Below, piece by piece: positions 254 through 60,973 of a stretch of DNA of 64,000 nucleotides (positions are counted from its first letter, which is position 1; the number at the start of each line of letters is the position of its first letter). The position numbers and the translations under genes are program-made. The notes beneath the pieces were generated by a model, which worked only from the letters and a program-made list of their open reading frames with translations, searched no databases and was not told the origin of the DNA. This stretch comes from Acetobacteraceae bacterium (GTDB lineage: Bacteria; Pseudomonadota; Alphaproteobacteria; Acetobacterales; Acetobacteraceae): the NCBI GenBank assembly GCA_965198565.1, contig OZ240665.1, forward strand, positions 4,215,514 through 4,279,513, written 5' to 3'.

Positions 254-286
254 CCCTCCCCCACCCGCTCCCGCCAGGGGAGAGGG
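254..286 (+). repeat. REP-like palindrome, CCCTCACCCC/CCCTCTCCC..GGGAGAGGG family (degenerate copy)
   Basis: ccctcccccacccgctcccgccaggggagaggg followed by ctttttt; lies between convergent genes. Confidence 0.75.
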
Positions 287-315
287 CTTTTTGGGGCGGT
301 TCCGAGCGCGGGGGG

Positions 316-691: not shown

Positions 692-3600
692 TCAAGTTGT
701 AGGGGTATGCGCGTCGAGCAGGTCGTCCGGGAGCGGCATGACGGTTGCGGTGCGGGTCCAGACCAGAGCGCAGTGGACGGGGCGGCCGGGGACGATCTGC
801 TGCAGCACGGCGCGATAGGCGGCCATCTGGCGCAGGTAGAGCACGGGGACGCGGTCGGGGGAGTCGGGGGCGTCGCGGTTGGTCTTGTAGTCGGCGAGCA
901 GGACGGCGTCCTCGAGGATGGCGAGGCGGTCGACCTGCCCGGCGATGACGGCGCCGCCGACCAGGCCGGTGAGCGGCTGCTCGGCGCGGCCATGGGGGCC
1001 GAACAGGGGGCGGAGGGCGGGGTGGTCGAGGATGGCCATGACCTCGGCGGCGAGGCTGGCGGGGGCGCCGGCGGCGCGGACAGTGGCGGCGACGGCGGCG
1101 GGGCGGTCGGCGGCCGGGAGGTCGGGCGCGTGCTGCAGCAGGCGGTGTACCAGGGTGCCGCGTTCGAGGGCGGCGGCGTTGGTGGCGAGGGGCGAGGCGG
1201 CGTGGGGGACGGGGCCGAGGGTGGCGTCGGCGGGGCGGCTGGGGGCGAGCGGGCGCGGGCGGGCGGGCTCGGCGGGGGGCGGATGCGGCACCCAGTCGGG
1301 CGGCAGGCCGGCCCAGGGGGGCATGGGCGCGTGATCGGGCGGGGGGGGTGCGGCGGCTTGGCGGGCCGGGGCGGTTTGCGGCGTGGCGTGGATGAGGGTG
1401 CCGTCCTGGTCGGTGGCGCCGAGGCGGGCCATGCCGCGCTGCACGGCGGAATACCAGCTTTTGTCGTCCAGGGGGCGGTGGGTCTGCCAGCCGCAGACGA
1501 CCAGGCGGTCCTCGGCGCGGGTGAGGGCGACGTAGAGCAGGCGGTTGTATTCCTCGAGGCGTTTGGCCTTTTCAGTTTCGCGCAGGCGGGTGACGGCGCG
1601 GCAGCGCAGCGCGGCGTACGGGGACCAGAGTGAGAGGTCATCTCCCGTCCAGACCAGGCTGCCGCCGTCGGGCGGGAGGGCGGTGGTGTCGGGCAGGATC
1701 ACCACGGGGGCTTGCAGGCCCTTGGCGCCGTGCACGGTCATGACGCGGACGGCGTGGCCGGCGCCCTCGGCCTCGCGCTTCACCTCGGCGCCGGATTGGC
1801 GCAGCCAGTGCAGGAAGCCCTGCAAGGACGGCGGGTGGGACGCGGCGTGGGCCAGGGCGGCGCCCAGCAGCTCGTCGATCGGTTCGGCGGCTTCGGGGCC
1901 CAAGCGGCGCAGCAGGCGGGCGCGGGCGCCGAGCGGGCCGAGGGCTTCCACCAGCAGGGCGTGGGGGGCGGCGTAGTCGACGCGGGCGAGCAGGGTCTGC
2001 AGAAAGCTGGTGACGCGCTGCCACTCTGGGCGCTCGGCGGCGCGGGTGCGCAGGGCGTCCCACAGCGACCAGCCGCGGCCGATGGCAAGTTCCATGAGGT
2101 CGTCGTCGGTGAGGCCGCCGAGCGGGCTGGTGAGCACGCAGGCGAGGGCGAGGTCGTCCTCGGGCAGCAGCAGGGTGTCGCAGAGGGCGAGCAGGTCCTG
2201 CACGGCGGGTTGCTGGGTGAGCGCCAGGCGGTCGAGCCCGGCGACGGGGACGCCGAGGGCTTTGAGGCGGCGCACCACGGCGCGGGCGAAGTCGCCGCGG
2301 CGGCGCACCAGGATGAGGATGTCGCCGGGCTGGATGGTGCGGCCCTGGCTGGGCAGCGGGGCGGTGCCGATGGCGGCGGCGACCCATTGCGCCAGGGTGT
2401 CGGCGAGGAGTTGCGGCGCGGTGGTGAGGCCGTGGTTGCGGCGGGCGACGGCCCAGGGCTCGGGCAGCTCCTCCTGCGGGCGGGGGGTGATGGGCCAGAG
2501 CTCGACCTGGCCGGCGTGGCCGACGCGATGGGCCTGATGGTGCAGTTTCTCGTCGGGTCCGAGGACGCCGGCGGCGGCGGTGAGGTCGTCGAAGACGGCG
2601 TCGACCAGGGCGAGGACGGGGGGGGTGGAGCGAAAGGATACGTCGAGCACGGTGTCGCGGAAGTTGCCGGAGGCGGCGATGGCGGCGTCACGCATGATGG
2701 CGCGCCAGCGGTCGAACTCGGCGGGTTCGGCGCCCTGGAAGGAGTAGATCGACTGCTTGCGGTCGCCGACGGCGAAGACGGTGCGCTTGGTGTCGCGGGC
2801 GGCGGCGCCGGCGAAGAACTCGGCGGTGAGGGCGCCGGCGATGGCCCATTGGTCGGGGGCGCTGTCCTGCACCTCGTCGAGCAGGACGTGGTCGAGGCCG
2901 CCGTCGAGCTTGTAGAGCACCCAGGCGGCGCCGGGGTCGATCAGGAGCTGACGGGTGTGGCTGATGAGGTCCTGGTAGTCCATCAGGCCGGCGAGTTGCT
3001 TGCGGCGCTGCAAGCGGGCGAAGACGGGGGCGGCCAGGGTGAGCACGGCGTTGGTGGCGGCGGCGACGTGGAGGGCACGGCGGTCGTCCTCCACGGCAGC
3101 GACGCGCTCGGCTTCGGTGAGGAGAGTTTCCTGCAGGCCGGGCTCGGCCTGGGACCATTTGCCGCGGCAGAGTTTGCGCGGATCGCCGTCTTCGCGGAGC
3201 AGGAGGGCGACCCACTCGGACCAGTGCTCCTGGCGCAGCTCGGGCGGGAGGTCGAGCCAGCCGCGCAGGTTGGCGGCGGTGGTGTGCTCGCCGGGGCTGG
3301 CCTTGGCGGAGGCGAGCTGGGCGATGGCGTCGCGCAGGCCCGGCGTGCTGGTGGCGACGGCGGCGGCGATCAGGCCCGCGTCGTCTCCGGACACGTCCAG
3401 GGCGCGCTCGAGGCGGAGCAGGCGGGCGGGGGCGGGCAGGTTCAGCACGGGCTCGAGGCGCTGCACGTGGGGGCGCAACTCGGCCAGCAACTTGCCGAAC
3501 TCGCCGTCGCGTACCAGGCCGGCGATGGTGCGCAGGGCGTCCGGGTCGGCGTCGGCGATGGCGGCCTCGCGGGCGGCGGTGAGCTCGGCGTGGCTGTCGG

Positions 3601-4075
3601 CGTCCTCCATCAGGCGGAATTGCGGGGCGATGGCGGCCTCGAGCGGGAAGCGGCGCAGCAGGGACTGGCAGAAGGCGTGGATGGTGCTGATACGCATGCC
3701 GCCGGGCAGGTCCAGCACGCGGGCGAACAGGGCGCGGGCGCGGTGGGTGACTTCGGGGTCCGGCCGGATGGCGCGCTCTTTGAGGGCGGCGATCAGGGCG
3801 GGGTCGTCGAGGGTGACCCATTGGCCGAGGATGCTTTGCAGGCGCAGCGCCATCTCGGCGGCGGCGGCCTTGGTGTAGGTGAGGCAGAGGATGCGGGCCG
3901 GGTCGGCGCCGGCGAGCATGAGGCGGAGCAGGCGGTCGATCAGCAGCTTGGTCTTGCCCGACCCGGCAGAGGCGGCGACGAAGGCGGAGACCTCGGGGTC
4001 GGAGGCTTGGTGCTGCAGGCTGTTGGCGCGGGCGGAGGCTTGCTCGGGGAGAGTGCGCGGGGGAATGGCGTTCAT
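692..4075 (-). CDS. addA: double-strand break repair helicase/nuclease AddA
   Basis: ASAGSGKT Walker [41 protein letters not shown]-terminal GQVDRL..DYKT nuclease; ATG 4075 overlaps the addB stop. Confidence 0.96.
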
Positions 4076-7000
4076 TCCGGGTCCTCCAGCGCGGCCCATT
4101 CGGCGACGCGGGCGAGCTGGGTGTAGTCGGAGAAGCGCGGGGCGCGGCCGGGGTGGGGCTGGGAGAGATAGGGGTGCGCCGGGTCGTCGAAGGCGGCGAC
4201 CAGGGCGGCGAGGCTGGCGCGGGCGGTGGCGACCGCTTCGGGCAAGGCGCCGGCGGTCTTCAGCCTGCCTTCCACTTTGCCAGGGACGTGGCCGCCGGTG
4301 AGATGCCAGTAGGTGAGTTCGCCGACGGGGTGGGCGAACTCGGGGCCAAACGCGCCGGATTCGGCCATGGCGGCTTCCAAGGGGAGCTGGGGCGCCAGGC
4401 CGCTTTCGACCTCCTTGTTGGAGGGGGGCGTGCCGGTCTTGTAGTCCAAGATGGCCAGGGTGGCGTCGGCTCTGCGCTCGATTCGGTCGGCGCGGCCGGT
4501 GAGGACGAAGGGCGGTTCGGTGGCCAGCGTCCAGGTGCCGTCGTGTTCGGAGACGATCTCGACCGGCTTGGCGGCGACCCGGCGGGCGGCTTCCTGCTCC
4601 GCGACCCATGCGGCGATGCGCTGCAGGCGGGGGCGCCACCAGGCAGCCAAGGCGGGGCGGAGGTCGGCTGCGGCCAAGGCGGTTTCCATGGCCGCGGCAA
4701 GGCGGGCTTCGGCGTCGGGCGGGAAGGTGGTGCCGTGGGCGGCGAGGAAGGCGTGGATGGCGTCGTGGACGACGGAGCCGTAGTCGGCGGCGTCGGCGGG
4801 TTCCTCGATGGGCGGCAGGGCGCGCAGGCGCAGGATGTGGCGGGCGTAGAGGGCGTAGGGGTCGCGCAGCCAGGTCTCGATCTCGGTGACGCGGAGGCGG
4901 CGGGGGCGCACGGCCACGGGCGGGCATGGCGCGGGGGGGTGTAGGCGGGGGACGGGGCCGGCCGGCAGGTCCAGCGCGCGGGCCCAGGCGGCGGCGGGGT
5001 GCTCGGGCAAGTGGCTGCCGGCGCCGCGGAGCATGGCCTCGAGCCGTTGCAGCCAGCGGGCGGGGACGGCGGGGGCGCCGTCGCGGCGGCGGGAGCAGGA
5101 CAGGACGACGTGGGGGGCGGCGCAGGCGGTCATCACCCAGTCATGCGCCATTTGGCCGACGGCCGCTTCGGGCGAGGGTAGGCCGGCGGCGGCGCGCATC
5201 GGGCGGCTGAGCCAGGGGCCGGGGTCGGCGGCGGCGGGCCAGACGTTTTCGGCCAGGCCGCCCAGCACGATGAGGTCGGCGCGCTGCAGGCGGGCCTCGA
5301 GCAGGCCCCAGATGAAGATGCGGGGGTGCTCGGCGCCGGTGCGGCCGCGCAAGGCCCGGCGGCTGCGGACGGCGACGTTGGCGAGCAGTTGGTCGAGCAG
5401 GCCGGGGAGCGTCGCCGGGTCTTGCGGGGGGAGGACGGCCAAAGCGGGCATGGCCTGGGCGAGCAGGGTGGCGAGGGCTTGGCCGTCCTCGCCGGACCAG
5501 AGGCGTTCGGCGCCGGGTTCGGCCGGGGTGGCGGCGAGGGCTTCGGCGGCGGTGAGCAGGGCGGCCAGGGCGGCTTGGGGCGGCGTGCGGGGGGTGGCGG
5601 CGAGGGTGAGCAGCGGGGTGAGGCAGGTGTCGAGGGCGGCAAGCAGGCGCTGGGCCGAAGGGGAGCGGGCGATGCCGTGGAGGCCCGGGAGGCCGGGCTT
5701 GGGGGCGGGGCCGCGCAGGCCGTCGAGTTCGAGGCTGCGGGCGGCGGCGCGGCAGGCGGACGGCGTGAGGCCGGCGGCGGCGAGCGGGTGCTTGAGCAGG
5801 GCGAGCAAGGGGACGGGGCGGAGCTGCTCGGCGATGGCGGCGGCGAGCAGGCGCAGGAACACGGCGGGCGGGGTGGCAATGAGGGGCTCGCCGGCGCTGT
5901 CGTCGGCGATGACGCCGAAGCGGCCGAGCTCGACGGCGACGCGGCCGGCGAGGTCGCGGTCGGGGGTGACGAGGGCGGCGCGGTGGCCGGGGGTGTCGAG
6001 GGCACGGCGGAGGATGAGGGCGATGGCGACGGCCTCTTCCTGCTGGTCGGCGGGGGTGAGGCGGTGGAGCTGCTCCCTCTCCCTCTGGGAGAGGGTCGGG
6101 GTGAGGGGCGGACTCGGCTGATTCGGGGGCGTGGGCCTACCCTCACCCAACCCTCTCCCAGAGGGAGAGGGCTTTTTGGGGGGGTGGGGGGTGGGGGTGC
6201 GCCAGGCGGTTAGGGCGACTGCGGGGAGGAGGGCGCGGTTAAGCAGCTCGACGCGCTCGGAGGGGGTCGCAGACGGCGAGTCCCATGGCTCCACGTCGCC
6301 GCGGGTGGCGCCGAGGGCGGTGAGCAGGCGGCAGAGGGCGGACTGGGGGTGGGTGTCTTCCAGGGCGTCCCAGGCGGGCTCGGGAAGCGCCAGGTCTAGG
6401 CCGGGGAGCACGACGCGGCCGGTGGGGAGGCTCGCCACCACACGCAGCAAGCGGGCCACGGCGGGGATGCCGCCCGTCGAGCCGGCGGCCAGAACGGGAT
6501 GCAAGGGCGGGCGGTCCTGCCAGGCGCGGGATTGGGCGTCCAGCAAGGCGACCTGGCGAGCGGCGGGGTTCATCAGGGCGTTGTCCGCGAGCCAGGCGGG
6601 CCAGGCGGCGGTCACGATCTGCAGGAAACGCAGGGTGATGCCCCAGTGCGCGGCGTAGTTCTCGGCGGCGAGGCGGGGCAAGGCTTGGGCCAGGTCGACC
6701 TCGGCGCGCTCGGCCTCGTCCATCAGGGCGGCCAATTCGGCGGCCAAGGGCCAGGCGCGGTCGGCGGTGGCGGGGGCGCCGAAGCGGCCCTCCAGCGCCA
6801 TGATCAGGCGGCAGAGATGGGCCAGGCGCACGGGGGCGGCGACGGCTTGGGGCAGGTGCAGGCTGCCGGCCATGGCCAGGGGGGCCTCGTCCAGCGCGCC
6901 GAACGCGGTGATGCGGGGGAGCAGGCAGGGGCGGCCCTCGGTTTGGGCCAGGAACGCCTCGGTGAGGGAGCGGGCGGCGCGGCGGGTGGGGAGCAGGATC

Positions 7001-7104
7001 AGGCCCCTGGCGGCGGCGAGCGGGTCAGACCCGGCGCGGGCGAGCCAGTCGGCGGCGATCAGGTCCAGAAAGGGCTGGCCGGGGCCGATGGTGCTGAGCT
7101 TCAC
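4072..7104 (-). CDS. addB: double-strand break repair protein AddB (carries a 42-codon repeat-derived insert)
   Basis: LLLPTRRAAR, EEAVAIAL, RAALVTPDRDLAGRV, LRDPYALYAR, GRADRIE..DYKTG; synteny with addA. Confidence 0.95.
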   Translation of the reverse strand: MKLSTIGPGQPFLDLIAADWLARAGSDPLAAARGLILLPTRRAARSLTEAFLAQTEGRPCLLPRITAFGALDEAPLAMAGSLHLPQAVAAPVRLAHLCRLIMALEGRFGAPATADRAWPLAAELAALMDEAERAEVDLAQALPRLAAENYAAHWGITLRFLQIVTAAWPAWLADNALMNPAARQVALLDAQSRAWQDRPPLHPVLAAGSTGGIPAVARLLRVVASLPTGRVVLPGLDLALPEPAWDALEDTHPQSALCRLLTALGATRGDVEPWDSPSATPSERVELLNRALLPAVALTAWRTPTPHPPKKPSPSGRGLGEGRPTPPNQPSPPLTPTLSQREREQLHRLTPADQQEEAVAIALILRRALDTPGHRAALVTPDRDLAGRVAVELGRFGVIADDSAGEPLIATPPAVFLRLLAAAIAEQLRPVPLLALLKHPLAAAGLTPSACRAAARSLELDGLRGPAPKPGLPGLHGIARSPSAQRLLAALDTCLTPLLTLAATPRTPPQAALAALLTAAEALAATPAEPGAERLWSGEDGQALATLLAQAMPALAVLPPQDPATLPGLLDQLLANVAVRSRRALRGRTGAEHPRIFIWGLLEARLQRADLIVLGGLAENVWPAAADPGPWLSRPMRAAAGLPSPEAAVGQMAHDWVMTACAAPHVVLSCSRRRDGAPAVPARWLQRLEAMLRGAGSHLPEHPAAAWARALDLPAGPVPRLHPPAPCPPVAVRPRRLRVTEIETWLRDPYALYARHILRLRALPPIEEPADAADYGSVVHDAIHAFLAAHGTTFPPDAEARLAAAMETALAAADLRPALAAWWRPRLQRIAAWVAEQEAARRVAAKPVEIVSEHDGTWTLATEPPFVLTGRADRIERRADATLAILDYKTGTPPSNKEVESGLAPQLPLEAAMAESGAFGPEFAHPVGELTYWHLTGGHVPGKVEGRLKTAGALPEAVATARASLAALVAAFDDPAHPYLSQPHPGRAPRFSDYTQLARVAEWAALEDPE
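6075..6171. repeat. inverted doublet of the CCCTCTCCC..GGGAGAGGG repeat inside addB
   Basis: Copies at 6075-6107 (reverse) and 6140-6171 (forward); same arrangement as the intergenic doublet at 10117-10213. Confidence 0.92.
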
Positions 7105-10116: not shown

Positions 10117-10213
10117 CCCTCTCCTTCTGGGAGAGGGCCGGGGTGAGGGGTGCACGCGCGCGATTGATGGTGCCGTTGGCCCCCTCACCCTGCTCTCTCC
10201 CAGAGGGAGAGGG
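10117..10213. repeat. inverted doublet of the CCCTCTCCC..GGGAGAGGG repeat (possible bidirectional terminator)
   Basis: Copies at 10117-10149 and 10182-10213, then a T-tract; between convergent clpP and dadA. Confidence 0.9.
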
Positions 10214-10242
10214 TTTTTTAAATTGGGTCGGGGTTGGGCGGG

Positions 10243-12330: not shown

Positions 12331-12984
12331 ATGGCCTGGACCCGCGACCAAATGGCTGCGCGCGCGGCGCAAGAGCTGGAGGACGGCTTCTACGTCAACC
12401 TGGGCATCGGGATACCGACGCTGGTGGCCAACCACATTCCGCCGGGCATGACGATCAAGCTGCACAGCGAAAATGGCATGATGGGCATGGGGCCGTTCCC
12501 CTATGAGGGCGAAGAGGACCCGGACCTGATCAATGCGGGCAAGCAGACGGTGACCACCCTGCCCTCGACCAGCTTCTTCGACAGTGCGGAGAGCTTCGCC
12601 ATGGTGCGGGGCGGGCACATCCAGCTCACCATCCTGGGCGCGCTGCAGGTGGCGGAGAATGGCGACCTGGCGAACTGGATGATCCCGGGGAAGATGGTGA
12701 AGGGCATGGGCGGCGCCATGGACCTGGTGGCCGGGGTGAAGCGGGTGGTGGTGCTGATGGAGCACGCGGCCAAGGATGGCTCGCCGAAGATCCTCAAGCA
12801 GTGCAACCTGCCGCTGACCGGGGCGGGGGTGGTGAACCTGGTGGTGAGCGACCTGGCGGTGTTCGACGTGGCGCGGCCGGGGCTGACGCTGGTGGATCTG
12901 GCGCCGGGCGTGACGCTGGACGAGGTGCGGGCGAAGACGGAGGCCGAGTTTGCCGTGCATGCGGGCCTGCGTCGCGATTCGTAG
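12331..12984 (+). CDS. scoB: 3-oxoacid CoA-transferase subunit B
   Basis: [13 protein letters not shown] catalytic Glu, GMGGAMDLV. Confidence 0.92.
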
Positions 12985-12985
12985 G

Positions 12986-13050
12986 TGTTGGTTGTCTGGC
13001 GACGCGTTGTTGGTTGTCTGGCGACGCGTTGTTGGTTGTCTGGCGACGCG
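12986..13050. repeat. 22-bp tandem repeat x3 (VNTR)
   Basis: tgttggttgtctggcgacgcgt repeated three times without spacers, between the scoB stop and tRNA-Ala. Confidence 0.95.
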
Positions 13051-33306: not shown

Positions 33307-33342
33307 CCCTCACCCCGACCCTCTCCCGCCCGCGGGAGAGGG
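33307..33342 (+). repeat. CCCTCACCCC..GGGAGAGGG repeat copy
   Basis: 33300-33346 is identical over 47 bp to 60931-60977. Confidence 0.92.
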
Positions 33343-42689: not shown

Positions 42690-42722
42690 CCCTCACCCCG
42701 ACCCTCTCCCAGAGGGAGAGGG
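42690..42722 (+). repeat. CCCTCACCCC..GGGAGAGGG repeat copy
   Basis: ccctcaccccgaccctctcccagagggagaggg between convergent gloB and the ankyrin gene. Confidence 0.92.
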
Positions 42723-44353: not shown

Positions 44354-46824
44354 TGCACGGCCTTTCGCGAAGACATCGAGGTGGCCCAGGCTATAGCATA
44401 GGCGCCGGCCGCAGCCAGCAGGACCCAGTGGATTCCGGCCTGGGTTATCAGAAGGTTTGCCAACGGCGTGGCCACGACGCTGAAGGCGCCGTTCACGGCC
44501 CAGGCGAAGGGCAGCATCGGCCCCGACCCCAGACGGCGAAGACCGAGTGGAAACGGCATGCCGAGCGCCACCGACACCGGCGCCAGCATCGCCACGACGA
44601 TGGCCGCCCGCAGCGCCAGCGGCCAGGCGAGGGTGGCCAGCAGCAAGGGCGTGAGCACCTGGGAGGCGGCAATGCACCACAGGATGGCGAACGAGACCGC
44701 CACGGTGATGGCGCGGGGCGACAGCCGCTCCGCCAGCAGACTGCCGCCCCCGGAGCAGATCAGCATGGCGGTCAGGACGAGGGCGAAGGCGGCGGTGGGA
44801 TCGTTCAGGTAGAGGCTGGTGCGCTCGATGGCGGCGAGTTCGATCATGAGAAAGCCCAGGCCGAGGGCGGCGAAATAGGCCACCGGCCGCAGCGCCGCCA
44901 GGGCCGGCACGCCCAGCCGTTTGCCCGACCAGATCGGCACCGCCAGCACCAGGAGTGCGACCAGGGCCGCCTGGGCCAGCACGGCGAGGTTCACCACCTG
45001 GCCGATCTCGGGTTGGGGCAGGATTTCCAGGCGGCGCAGGATGGAGCCCAGGTGGTCGAGCCGCAGCACGTTGTAGTAGCTCGGGCGGTCCAAGGTGGCG
45101 GGGGCGAGCGAGAAGGCGGCGTCGGACGCGGTCGGCTGGTCGCGCAGCACCGCCATGGCCTCGTCGGCGATCGCGTCGTCCGACCCGGCGTCCGGCGCGG
45201 ACTCGCCCTGGTCGAACGAGACGGCTGGCAGGTCGTTGTAGAGGCCGGCGCGGGCGGCCACCACGTCGATGCCGGGGTAGTAGGAGACGTCGAACGAGCG
45301 GGCGTCGCACCAGCGCCGGATGGCGGCGATGTCGGCTTGGCTCCATGGGCGGGGGGAGAGGAGGATGCGCACGTTCCAGGCGGAGCGGTAGATGACGACA
45401 TGGGCCGCCGGGTCGGTCGCGCTGGTGGCGCCGGTCGCGCTGGTCGCGCTGGTGGCGCCGGTGGCGCTGGTCGCGCCGGTGGCGCTGGTGGCGCTGGTCG
45501 CGCGCAACGCGTCACGGGCGGTGGCGAGCACGCGCAGGGCATAGACCGGGAAGTCGCGGATCGACACCGGGAGCGAGACGATGCCGGCCGGCCCCACGGC
45601 CTCGAGGTCGGCCGCCACGCTCTCCACGGTGAAGGCGGCGGCGTTGACGGGGGTTTCGTCCAGGAAGTCGGACGATATGTCGATGACGTCGTAGGCGGAG
45701 GAGTGTCGCACGGCGGCCAGGAGGCTGGCGGCGGAGAGGTGCACGCTGGGACTGGTGGCGAGAGGCTGAGAGCCGCCGAGGCCGGCGCGCAAGGCACGGG
45801 CGATCACCGGGTCCGGCTCGAGCACGTCGAGCTGTCGCGCGCCCAGGGCCTGCGCCTCGGCGACGCGGAAGCCGCCGGAGCTGCCGGCGATCAGGGCGCG
45901 GGCGCCGGGGCGCAAGGCGTAGGGCAGCGCGGACAAGGCGGCGGGCGCGTAGCCGACGTCCAGCGGGCCGGGCTTGGGCAAGGCGGCGATGCGGGCGCCG
46001 TCGCGGTAGAGGCCGAAGGCGGTGGGCGGGCCGGGGAGGTTCAGCAGGGCCAGGTTGCTGGAGACGTCGGTGTCCAGCCGCTCGGTGAAGTCGTCGAGCT
46101 CGGCGTAGAGGCCGCGCGGGCTGACCACTTGGGCGACGGTGCGGCTGCCGGGCACGTGCAGCGGGGCGTAGATCGGTTTGAAGTCGTTGTAGGCGGCGCC
46201 GTTGGCGAGCAGCAGTCCGAGTTCGCCCACGACCAGGAAGGCGACCCCGGCGAACCCGGCCCGGCGGTCGGGCCCGAACCAGCAGGCGGCGGCGAACGGC
46301 AGCAGCAGCACGCTGACCAGCAGGAAGGGGTGGACGAGCCACATCAGCCCCAGCACCAGGGCGGACCCGGCGCCGGCGCCCAGCAGGTCCGCCCCGTAGA
46401 CGGCGCCGACGCGGTCGCTGTCGAGCACGAAGCAGAGGCTGATGTAGAGCCCGGTCAGGTAGAACACGGGCAGCAGGACGGCGTAGTAGAGCGCGATGAA
46501 GCCCAACTGGCCGCCGAACGTCGCCGGGTTCTGCATCTCGAGCGGGTTGAACGGGTTGGCGGCCATGGCCACGAAGCCGGCAGCGGCCGCCAACACGAGG
46601 GCCGGCGGCAGCCAGGCGAGCCAGAGCTTGGCCCGGCGCACCAGGGCGTCGCGGCACAGCGCCACCGTGACGCCACTGAAGGCGAAGCCGGCCATGGCGA
46701 TGGAGATCACCCAGTAGCCGTATTCGGACCACTTCGCGACGGCGAAATAGCGCGTGAGGGCGGTCTCCAGGCCGACCGCGGCGGCGGAGACCAGGAAGAC
46801 GGCGGGCAGCCGGGCGCGGATCAC
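44332..46824 (-). CDS. polytopic membrane protein with a spermidine-synthase-like SAM-dependent methyltransferase domain
   Basis: N- and C-terminal TM bundles; central ALIAGSSGG, LEPDP, YDVIDI; WAVNGAFSV; GTGA overlap with the upstream stop. Confidence 0.8.
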   Translation of the reverse strand: MIRARLPAVFLVSAAAVGLETALTRYFAVAKWSEYGYWVISIAMAGFAFSGVTVALCRDALVRRAKLWLAWLPPALVLAAAAGFVAMAANPFNPLEMQNPATFGGQLGFIALYYAVLLPVFYLTGLYISLCFVLDSDRVGAVYGADLLGAGAGSALVLGLMWLVHPFLLVSVLLLPFAAACWFGPDRRAGFAGVAFLVVGELGLLLANGAAYNDFKPIYAPLHVPGSRTVAQVVSPRGLYAELDDFTERLDTDVSSNLALLNLPGPPTAFGLYRDGARIAALPKPGPLDVGYAPAALSALPYALRPGARALIAGSSGGFRVAEAQALGARQLDVLEPDPVIARALRAGLGGSQPLATSPSVHLSAASLLAAVRHSSAYDVIDISSDFLDETPVNAAAFTVESVAADLEAVGPAGIVSLPVSIRDFPVYALRVLATARDALRATSATSATGATSATGATSATSATGATSATDPAAHVVIYRSAWNVRILLSPRPWSQADIAAIRRWCDARSFDVSYYPGIDVVAARAGLYNDLPAVSFDQGESAPDAGSDDAIADEAMAVLRDQPTASDAAFSLAPATLDRPSYYNVLRLDHLGSILRRLEILPQPEIGQVVNLAVLAQAALVALLVLAVPIWSGKRLGVPALAALRPVAYFAALGLGFLMIELAAIERTSLYLNDPTAAFALVLTAMLICSGGGSLLAERLSPRAITVAVSFAILWCIAASQVLTPLLLATLAWPLALRAAIVVAMLAPVSVALGMPFPLGLRRLGSGPMLPFAWAVNGAFSVVATPLANLLITQAGIHWVLLAAAGAYAIAWATSMSSRKAVQWQPSPT
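45415..45501 (-). repeat. in-frame 9-bp tandem repeat encoding (AT[S/G])x9-AT
   Basis: gcgaccagc/gccaccggc units inside the methyltransferase-like gene. Confidence 0.9.
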
Positions 46825-49416: not shown

Positions 49417-49598
49417 GTCATTCCCGATCGAACCGCGCAGCGGAGACCGGCTGAATGAAGGCTTACATACATTTTCCGTTCCGTTGCCCCCCAGACGCCC
49501 ACCCCGACCCTCTCCCGCCCGCGGGAGCCCCGCGGGAGAGGGAGATATTCACCGGCTGGAAGCTGTGTGAATCGGGAAGGATCAAGTTCGGGCATGAC
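49417..49598. repeat. composite nested repeat (GTCAT..ATGAC REP-like arms around a CCCTCTCCC-family copy)
   Basis: gtcattcccgat (49417-49428) pairs with atcgggaa (49571-49578); ggatcaagttcgggcatgac matches 60151-60170; inner copy at 49498-49542. Confidence 0.7.
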
Positions 49599-60024: not shown

Positions 60025-60057
60025 CCCTCACCCCTGCCCTCTCCCAGAGGGAGAGGG
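60025..60057 (+). repeat. CCCTCACCCC..GGGAGAGGG repeat copy
   Basis: ccctcacccctgccctctcccagagggagaggg. Confidence 0.9.
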
Positions 60058-60142
60058 AGATGTTCTTCGGCGGTGGCAGGCGAAGAAGCCGTGGGCGGCG
60101 ACATTGCGTAAACGGGCGTTTACGTCACGCGCGGGACCCCGT

Positions 60143-60170
60143 GGATGCCCGGATCAAGTCCGGGCATGAC
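60143..60170. repeat. REP-like hairpin of the GTCATGCCCGG family
   Basis: gg-atgcccgga-tcaag-tccgggcat-gac. Confidence 0.8.
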
Positions 60171-60223
60171 GGTGTGGGGACGGGGTCGGCCAAAACGCTC
60201 GCGCGGGGGCGCTTTGCCGCGGG

Positions 60224-60937: not shown

Positions 60938-60973
60938 CCCTCACCCCGACCCTCTCCCGCCCGCGGGAGAGGG
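60938..60973 (+). repeat. CCCTCACCCC..GGGAGAGGG repeat copy
   Basis: Identical to the 33307 copy. Confidence 0.92.

Follow-up and report, generated by a model that had tools for sequence, protein, structure and literature searches.

The window analysed here, a stretch of 64,000 nucleotides (nt) from an Acetobacteraceae bacterium (assembly GCA_965198565.1, contig OZ240665.1, positions 4,215,514 to 4,279,513), carries within the conserved repair gene addB an inverted pair of short hairpin repeats, hereafter the doublet, which is translated in frame as part of the AddB protein. Judged by its sequence, the repeat is a member of the known BoxC/PIT/TM_ECO family (PIT, potential intrastrand triplex; single members are called TM units below) and not a new repeat. 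The family appears enormously expanded in this alphaproteobacterium, and across a bacterial family two loops of AddB have been struck repeatedly by independent insertions. The best explanation, to which a probability of roughly 0.75 was assigned, takes the insert for a selfish or passenger repeat that permissive linkers can tolerate, and not for an adaptation.

The doublet within addB

The genes addB and addA are encoded on the minus strand, with addA downstream of addB and a 4-nt overlap (ATGA) between the start of addA and the stop of addB. The features of this region are the following.

4072-7104, minus strand: addB (alphaproteobacterial type), 1010 amino acids (aa), intact open reading frame (ORF) with the insert; TIGR02786 (addB_alphas), 904 bits, equivalog
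692-4075, minus strand: addA; TIGR02784, 1082 bits; N-terminus MNAIPP...
6075-6107, plus strand (antisense to addB): TM/BoxC unit 1, type B-like; full unit CCCTCTCCCTCTGGGAGAGGGTCGGGGTGAGGG, 0 mismatches to the window consensus
6108-6138: doublet spacer, 31 nt, encoding RPTPPNQPSP; equal in length to the spacer of the doublet at 10117 and partly conserved with it
6139-6171, minus strand: TM/BoxC unit 2, type A-like (second loop TT), inverted with respect to unit 1; encodes KPSPSGRGLGEGR
6172-6184, plus strand: element tail CTTTTTGGGGGGG, forming with the adjacent hairpin a terminator-like motif on the strand antisense to addB

An in-frame inverted repeat pair in addB, with the peptide encoded by it, had been reported in a preliminary description of this DNA made from its letters alone. 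Both were recovered: the ORF 4072-7104 is stop-free through the whole segment and its translation reads ...ALTAWR-TPTPHPPKKPSPSGRGLGEGRPTPPNQPSPPLTPTLSQRERE-QLHRLTPADQQEEAVAIAL..., the one correction being that unit 2 starts at 6139 and not at 6140. Nucleotides 6073-6198 correspond to AddB residues T303-E344. The insert residues are Pro/Gly/Ser-rich, and GLGEGRPTPPNQPSPPLTPTLSQR is an example of a peptide spanning the insert. Unit 1 has the layout CCCTCTCCC-TCT-GGGAGAGGG-TCG-GGGTGAGGG and encodes ...PLTPTLSQRER in addB. The arms of the doublet (6075-6100 and 6146-6171, 26 nt each) are 96% complementary, and the 21-nt core of the repeat was matched 10 times in the window, against 0 matches expected from 100 shuffles. 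The Pfam domain PDDEXK_1 covers AddB residues 739-977.

The ORF of addA (minus strand, 692-4927) stays open for about 284 codons upstream of the true start at 4075, overlapping addB; this openness is attributed to the high GC content and does not represent a longer protein.

Empty site and derived state

When the best 60 AddB homologues were aligned, nearly all of them had 9 residues between WR and GLxRL, versus 43 in the window, and the short linker is shared by about 30 species-representative genomes ranging from Acetobacter to Acidisphaera. The genome of the window was absent from that species-representative set, and an exact look-up of its AddB in public assemblies returned no record. Between LLPA and DQQEEA, 89 of about 101 orthologues have 23 aa, compared with 57 aa for the window. 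An alignment gap of some 30-40 aa had been expected at this spot and was found, with a size of 34 aa; a linker of equal length, named beforehand as evidence to the contrary, was absent from nearly all aligned orthologues.

An empty site was obtained from public sequencing runs. Two of these, X1 and X2, hold the sequence of the window, and two others, X3 and X4, come from other organisms that share 22-24% of its 31-mers. The replaced segment is as follows.

6065-6187: replaced segment; 21 nt (GACAGGCCGGCGATGTCCGCC) in X3/X4 contigs, joint 6064->6188

In the frame of addB the X3/X4 empty site reads WRTPTP-ADIAGLS-RL, which is the standard linker. With this close relative, the claim that the common repeat of the window was inserted into addB was borne out. 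The size first given for the insert, 126 nt, had to be reduced: compared with the empty site, the net gain amounts to 102 nt (34 codons); TPTP on the left is ancestral linker, and EQLH on the right probably is as well. The tail CTTTTTGGGG (sense strand CCCCAAAAAG) is part of the element, since it is also found after the copies at 254-286 and 10182-10213. By this comparison the insertion is derived and recent, later than the split from the relative sharing about a quarter of the 31-mers. The opposite polarity, an ancestral long linker lost elsewhere, was rejected, because the arms hardly deviate from the genome consensus and the linker is short in a close relative.

Assembly support

Same-organism Logan contigs (X1, X2) matched 5700-6098 and 6151-6600 with 0 differences, running from unique flanks into both arms; the doublet and both of its junctions are real. 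The preliminary description had asked whether the segment could be an assembly artefact. For the junctions this was answered in favour of the assembly, whereas the interior between the two matched stretches was left uncovered by the independent contigs. Because these contigs stop short of the interior, the spacer length, and hence the frame, rests on the assembly and on the ORF staying open. The amount of sampled words missing from the run index was that expected from the interior gap alone. The stop of the contigs at 6098 and 6151 may reflect coverage or k-mer dropout in a G-run-rich hairpin, or heterogeneity. The X1/X2 contigs end symmetrically at the inner arm ends; a paralogous doublet elsewhere is spanned.

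Identity and abundance of the repeat

The element was named BoxC first, PIT next and TM_ECO last (Holder et al. 2015, PMC4666352, where earlier PIT work by Hoyne et al. 2000, 2002 is cited). The TM_ECO pattern is 5'-CCCTCNCCC N3-6 GGGNGAGGG N3 GGGNGAGGG-3', with one mismatch permitted, and copy no. 20 of Escherichia coli K-12 reads CCCTCTCCCTGTGGGAGAGGGTCGGGGTGAGGGC (PMC4666352). Five copies in the window, including 6075-6107, follow the strict pattern, and nine match with two substitutions or with a 2-nt second loop, 6139-6171 through the 2-nt loop. Of 5426 complete E. coli genomes, 4309 were matched by 6060-6190 in a blastn search, with 90-99% identity (arms) at the best place in each record; some records aligned over the whole 99-nt doublet. 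In the hrpB-mrcB spacer of E. coli the aligned doublet has the same layout, (hairpin-third block)-spacer-(third block-hairpin). The window doublet pairs a unit with second loop TCG (type B in Table 1 of that paper) with a unit with loop TT (A-like). The likeness to the published family thus comprises the common sequence pattern, the closely matching E. coli arms, and an inverted doublet of about 99 nt overall made of a loop-CCG/TCG unit and a loop-TT(A) unit. Rfam at gathering thresholds returned two tRNAs only from the window and no match to the repeat.

Some differences were also found. The 23 TM_ECO copies of E. coli K-12 are 'always located intergenically' (PMC4666352), whereas the addB doublet is translated within a conserved gene; membership nevertheless stands, since the intergenic location describes the E. 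coli copies and is outside the sequence definition. The subfamily of the window has a T-run tail. Finally, 3610 copies are published across 262 proteobacterial genomes, with a maximum of 143 per genome (PMC4666352), which is far exceeded by the estimate of about 10^3 copies in the host studied here (about 365 when the strict pattern is extrapolated). Single strands of TM_ECO form a triplex in vitro (E. coli oligonucleotides), which has not been seen in vivo; the same paper reports an association of the family with local variability of genomes and found no connection to known mobile elements (PMC4666352).

TM/BoxC was the sole real interspersed repeat family of the window in a general repeat scan. 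Its 11 hairpin units per 64 kb extrapolate to about 800 in the 4.67 Mb genome, and in X1/X2 the summed word depth over the arms (window 6072-6171) was about 800-1900 times the flank depth; all copy-number figures from word depth or window extrapolation are rough estimates. The genome appears to hold on the order of a thousand TM units. An intergenic doublet at 10117-10213 had also been pointed out, and it aligns with the addB copy without gaps, with 84% mean column identity over 141 aligned columns and a common T-run tail. In X4, words of the spacer were about 15-fold deeper than single-copy sequence, which would fit roughly 15 copies of a doublet whose spacer can be aligned.

Position in the predicted protein

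The AlphaFold2 model of AddB (49 homologues) had a mean predicted local distance difference test score (pLDDT) of 82 and a predicted template modelling score (pTM) of 0.68. Residues 303-339 are coil in the model, with pLDDT <50 at 307-336, and lie between helices 282-291/299-302 and strand 346-349 followed by helix 354-368; the insert is thus a predicted disordered loop. The top structural match of the model was Bacillus subtilis AddB, chain B (4cej_B/3u4q_B), with AdnA and RecC next; as the AddB profile found no match among PDB sequences, the comparison with B. subtilis AddB holds at the fold level only. By analogy with UvrD-type helicases, the insert would be located at the junction of the first and second RecA-like domains, in the degenerate helicase half of AddB.

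The 103-nt unit is stop-free in three of its six orientation/frame combinations, so that an insertion into a tolerant loop has about an even chance of leaving a whole protein. AddB stays intact, with about 34 additional residues, because the net length is a multiple of three and half of the frames and orientations are open. A word-indexed protein search with the insert peptide returned no candidates, and with the 43-aa peptide as query a full HMMER scan over 1.84 billion representatives gave two weak matches. The earlier interpretation as 'protein innovation' was not supported.

The sense RNA of the insert folds in silico into one long hairpin (-77 kcal/mol, z = -5.9). The hairpin-plus-T-run (terminator-like) motif is present on the plus strand only, antisense to addB, and a sense-strand terminator in addB was therefore rejected. 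An effect of the predicted hairpin on addB-addA expression, as proposed in the preliminary description, is possible; it gained no support, given the antisense location of the motif and the earlier tests, as reported in PMC4666352, in which PIT elements of E. coli had neither promoter nor terminator activity.

Recurrent insertions at two AddB loops

Relatives were compared over fetched loci amounting to about 0.9 Mb and centred on addB. Insertions were located at two sites. Site A is at about residue 279, before helix 282-302 and about 28 residues upstream of site B, which is the insert site of the window. TM units or doublets were present at site A in L016, L021, L023, L032, L048 (P0116), L049 (P0103), L050 (P0112) and L053 (P0058). 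Site B is occupied by TM inserts in the window, L002 and L004, and the TM doublet of P0019 at this site is degenerate. P0002 and P0003, at 79% identity the nearest relatives in the database, likewise carry an insert at site B, which consists of a different palindromic doublet (GTCATGCCCGGACTTGATCCGGGCATCCACG ... CGTGGATGGCGGGATCAAGTCCGGCCATGAC, peptide MPGLDPGIH...VDGGIKSGHD) and then a single, partly decayed TM hairpin. This second family was recorded as follows.

L001 10001-13144 and L002 5001-8099: second-family inverted doublet, addB site B; unit GTCATGCCCGGACTTGATCCGGGCATCCACG, translated as MPGLDPGIH / DGxIKSGHD

A single unit of the second palindromic family is also present in the window, at 60141-60172, beside a TM unit.

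Site A is expanded by other sequences too: simple tandem peptide repeats in L029 and L045 (RVASGPQTA x2.5 and WPMQS x3, respectively) and a 64-aa non-TM insert in P0049 (L051). The proteins of L050 and L053 are 90% identical and have one common insert, from which 12 nt were lost in frame in L053; inserts therefore persist through speciation and decay.

Events were counted by comparing each carrier with its nearest empty-site relative and merging clades that possibly share an event. At least seven independent TM insertions in AddB were obtained across the Acetobacteraceae, plus one event of the second repeat family. Those at site A are the L016/P0058/P0112 clade, P0103, P0116 and L032/L023, with L021 ambiguous; the TM events at site B are the window, P0002/P0003 and P0019. 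Neither TM units within coding sequence nor the AddB hot spots seem to have been described before.

Additionally, TM units were found in other genes of the relatives. The APH-family kinase gene upstream of addB has in-frame TM units in L013 (8444-8476) and L036 (8426-8460), between two Pfam-matched halves; the kinase gene of L036 has extra tandem TM copies. Locus L040 (7651-7725 / 12955-13048) has a TM doublet in the N-terminal region of a LolA homologue and a tandem TM pair at addB-addA. The LolA doublet is in frame and ahead of a signal-peptide-like stretch, with no alternative start codon after it, and the two tandem units separate addB from addA by about 150 nt, versus the 4-nt overlap in relatives. 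By a rough count, addB, at about 15% of the sequence sampled, holds five of about eight TM events in coding sequence.

Comparison with other repeat systems

The preliminary description had drawn an analogy with Rickettsia palindromic elements (RPEs), palindromic repeats of about 100-150 nt located in frame within unrelated housekeeping genes, to which they add a fold-compatible peptide segment (Ogata et al. 2000, as summarised in PMC10969869). The analogy holds for an in-frame palindromic repeat that adds a loop, here one predicted to be disordered, and for insertion into conserved genes with gain of a peptide (AddB; the APH-family kinase of L013/L036; the LolA N-terminus of L040). It is a likeness in behaviour only, as membership is implausible given the host, the GC content and the TM_ECO identity. 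The host is a high-GC member of the Acetobacteraceae, presumably free-living, and not an obligate intracellular Rickettsia; the AddB peptide is of low complexity and predicted disordered, without a conserved fold or sequence family; and insertions have struck one protein, AddB, repeatedly in the same two loops.

REPINs are inverted doublets of repetitive extragenic palindromic (REP) sequences mobilised by RAYT transposases (Bertels and Rainey 2011, PMC3116915). The elements described here resemble them in being short hairpin repeats, single or in inverted doublets with a spacer of conserved length, and in the doublet as the putative replicating unit, since doublets of the same length with alignable spacers are found in the window and in X4. 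A REP carries a GTAG or CGTC tetranucleotide tag at one end (PMC3733652), whereas the TM units have no such conserved tag; their flanks vary (gcccg, cgca, gtcag, ccta) and GTAG occurs in one copy only.

Intragenic miniature transposable elements with inverted repeats (MITEs) that make in-frame fusions include ERIC, Correia and cyanobacterial MITEs (PMC10969869). The doublet resembles them as a small, putatively non-autonomous element whose inverted arms recall terminal inverted repeats and which is translated inside ORFs; no target-site duplication was visible at the filled/empty pair (ends ambiguous by about 10 nt), and it has no known parent insertion sequence.

Explanations for the insertions

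According to the favoured explanation, the 9-residue AddB linker, located between the helix that ends in ...ALTAWR and the strand LHRL that would open the next helicase-like domain, would have received a copy of a TM doublet as a single unit of about 103-110 nt. Each element consists of a G/C-rich hairpin and a third G-rich block. With apparently about a thousand units in the genome, genes would be struck often and only insertions in permissive loops would survive. The data show what the element is, that its presence in addB is derived with respect to an empty site, that the frame is intact, that the loop is predicted disordered and that two loops are struck repeatedly; we infer that the doublet moves as a unit, that the insert is neutral and that selection acts as a filter. 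Several findings argue against a specific function: lineages differ in the peptides, in frame and orientation and even in the repeat family, older copies are eroded by deletions, and most orthologues are free of inserts. Some points weigh against the passenger explanation. No target-site duplication is visible at the single clean filled/empty pair, whose ends can be placed only to within about 10 nt, and about 12 nt of ancestral linker were apparently replaced. The interior 6099-6150 (52 nt) is covered by no X1/X2 contig at 99% likeness. The insert may have a small cost or benefit. Permissiveness alone, moreover, may not explain why just two sites are used; the AddB model has other low-confidence loops (404-406, 578-589 and 713-722), at which no inserts were found in the sample.

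This last point leads to a tentative alternative, possible and less credible than tolerance alone, in which the two loops are mutational targets and not just permissive, the elements being copied into C-rich proline-codon runs (CCCNCCCC) that resemble their arms, perhaps via template switching or microhomology-mediated repair. The concentration of at least seven TM events and one unrelated palindromic doublet in two loops, the share of addB among the coding-sequence events, the otherwise rigid length of site B and a left junction, ACCCCCACCCC, that adjoins the element tail CCCC-AAAAAG all agree with it. However, expansion of site A by different repeat families and by simple tandem repeats points to tolerance of the protein rather than to one element's target, a consistent target motif or duplication was not seen, and the sample was centred on addB. 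In a stronger form, which is rather unlikely, BoxC/TM doublets would be an actively copying non-autonomous element of the Acetobacteraceae with a real target preference, repeatedly writing low-complexity loops into proteins, and the AddB hot spots would reflect the mechanism (e.g. break repair at C-rich, structure-prone DNA) and not only tolerance. A functional insert, whose loop would alter AddB (as a linker, or by contact with a partner or DNA) or whose sense hairpin would tune translation or stability of the addB-addA mRNA, is quite improbable. The stable predicted RNA hairpin, the persistence of inserts over 10-25% protein divergence in the L016/P0058/P0112 clade and an orientation that avoids a sense-strand terminator-like motif would fit a function, but the variation between lineages and the decay described above, the predicted disorder of the region and the reported inactivity of PIT elements in E. 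coli argue against it. Least probable is that the interior is mis-assembled, or that addB is a young pseudogene whose frame is open by chance. The same-organism contigs do stop at 6098 and 6151, none spanning the spacer, and the region is homopolymer-rich; yet both junctions agree without differences, the 1010-codon ORF is open, about 80% identical to relatives over its full length and reaches the equivalog score, and equivalent in-frame inserts are present in many independent assemblies.

Insertions in constrained coding sequence provide exact filled and empty sites, which are rare for intergenic copies and could reveal the mode of copying. Two positions of alphaproteobacterial AddB tolerate 30-70 extra residues and are useful for tagging, and the RPE phenomenon is extended to a high-GC genome outside the obligate intracellular bacteria. 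To our knowledge, neither a function nor a mode of spread has been established for the BoxC/PIT/TM elements, known since the 1990s. If the target-preference reading were true, an RPE-like process would operate in bacteria that are not obligate intracellular parasites, and clean filled/empty pairs would make the mobility mechanism of a family known for about 30 years directly readable.

Other copies in the window

The remaining copies of the family in the window are listed below.

254-296, plus strand: degenerate single TM unit, with the same CTTTTTGGGG tail
10117-10219 (doublet 10117-10213), plus strand: doublet and T-run, intergenic, between convergent clpP-like and DAO-oxidoreductase genes
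33307-33342, minus strand: single TM unit, GCCCGC-loop subfamily
42690-42722, minus strand: single TM unit, identical to unit 1
49496-49542, minus strand: single TM unit, stem-loop duplicated internally (CCCGCCCGCGGGAG-CCCCGCGGGAGAGGG)
60025-60057, minus strand: single TM unit
60938-60973, minus strand: single TM unit, sharing 98% identity over 50 nt with the copy at 33307

The duplicated stem-loop at 49496-49542 looks like a product of slippage inside the hairpin. A 9-nt tandem array (GGTGGCGCT / GGTCGCGCT variants, about 14 registers) without relation to the TM family is located at 45388-45531, probably inside a coding region.

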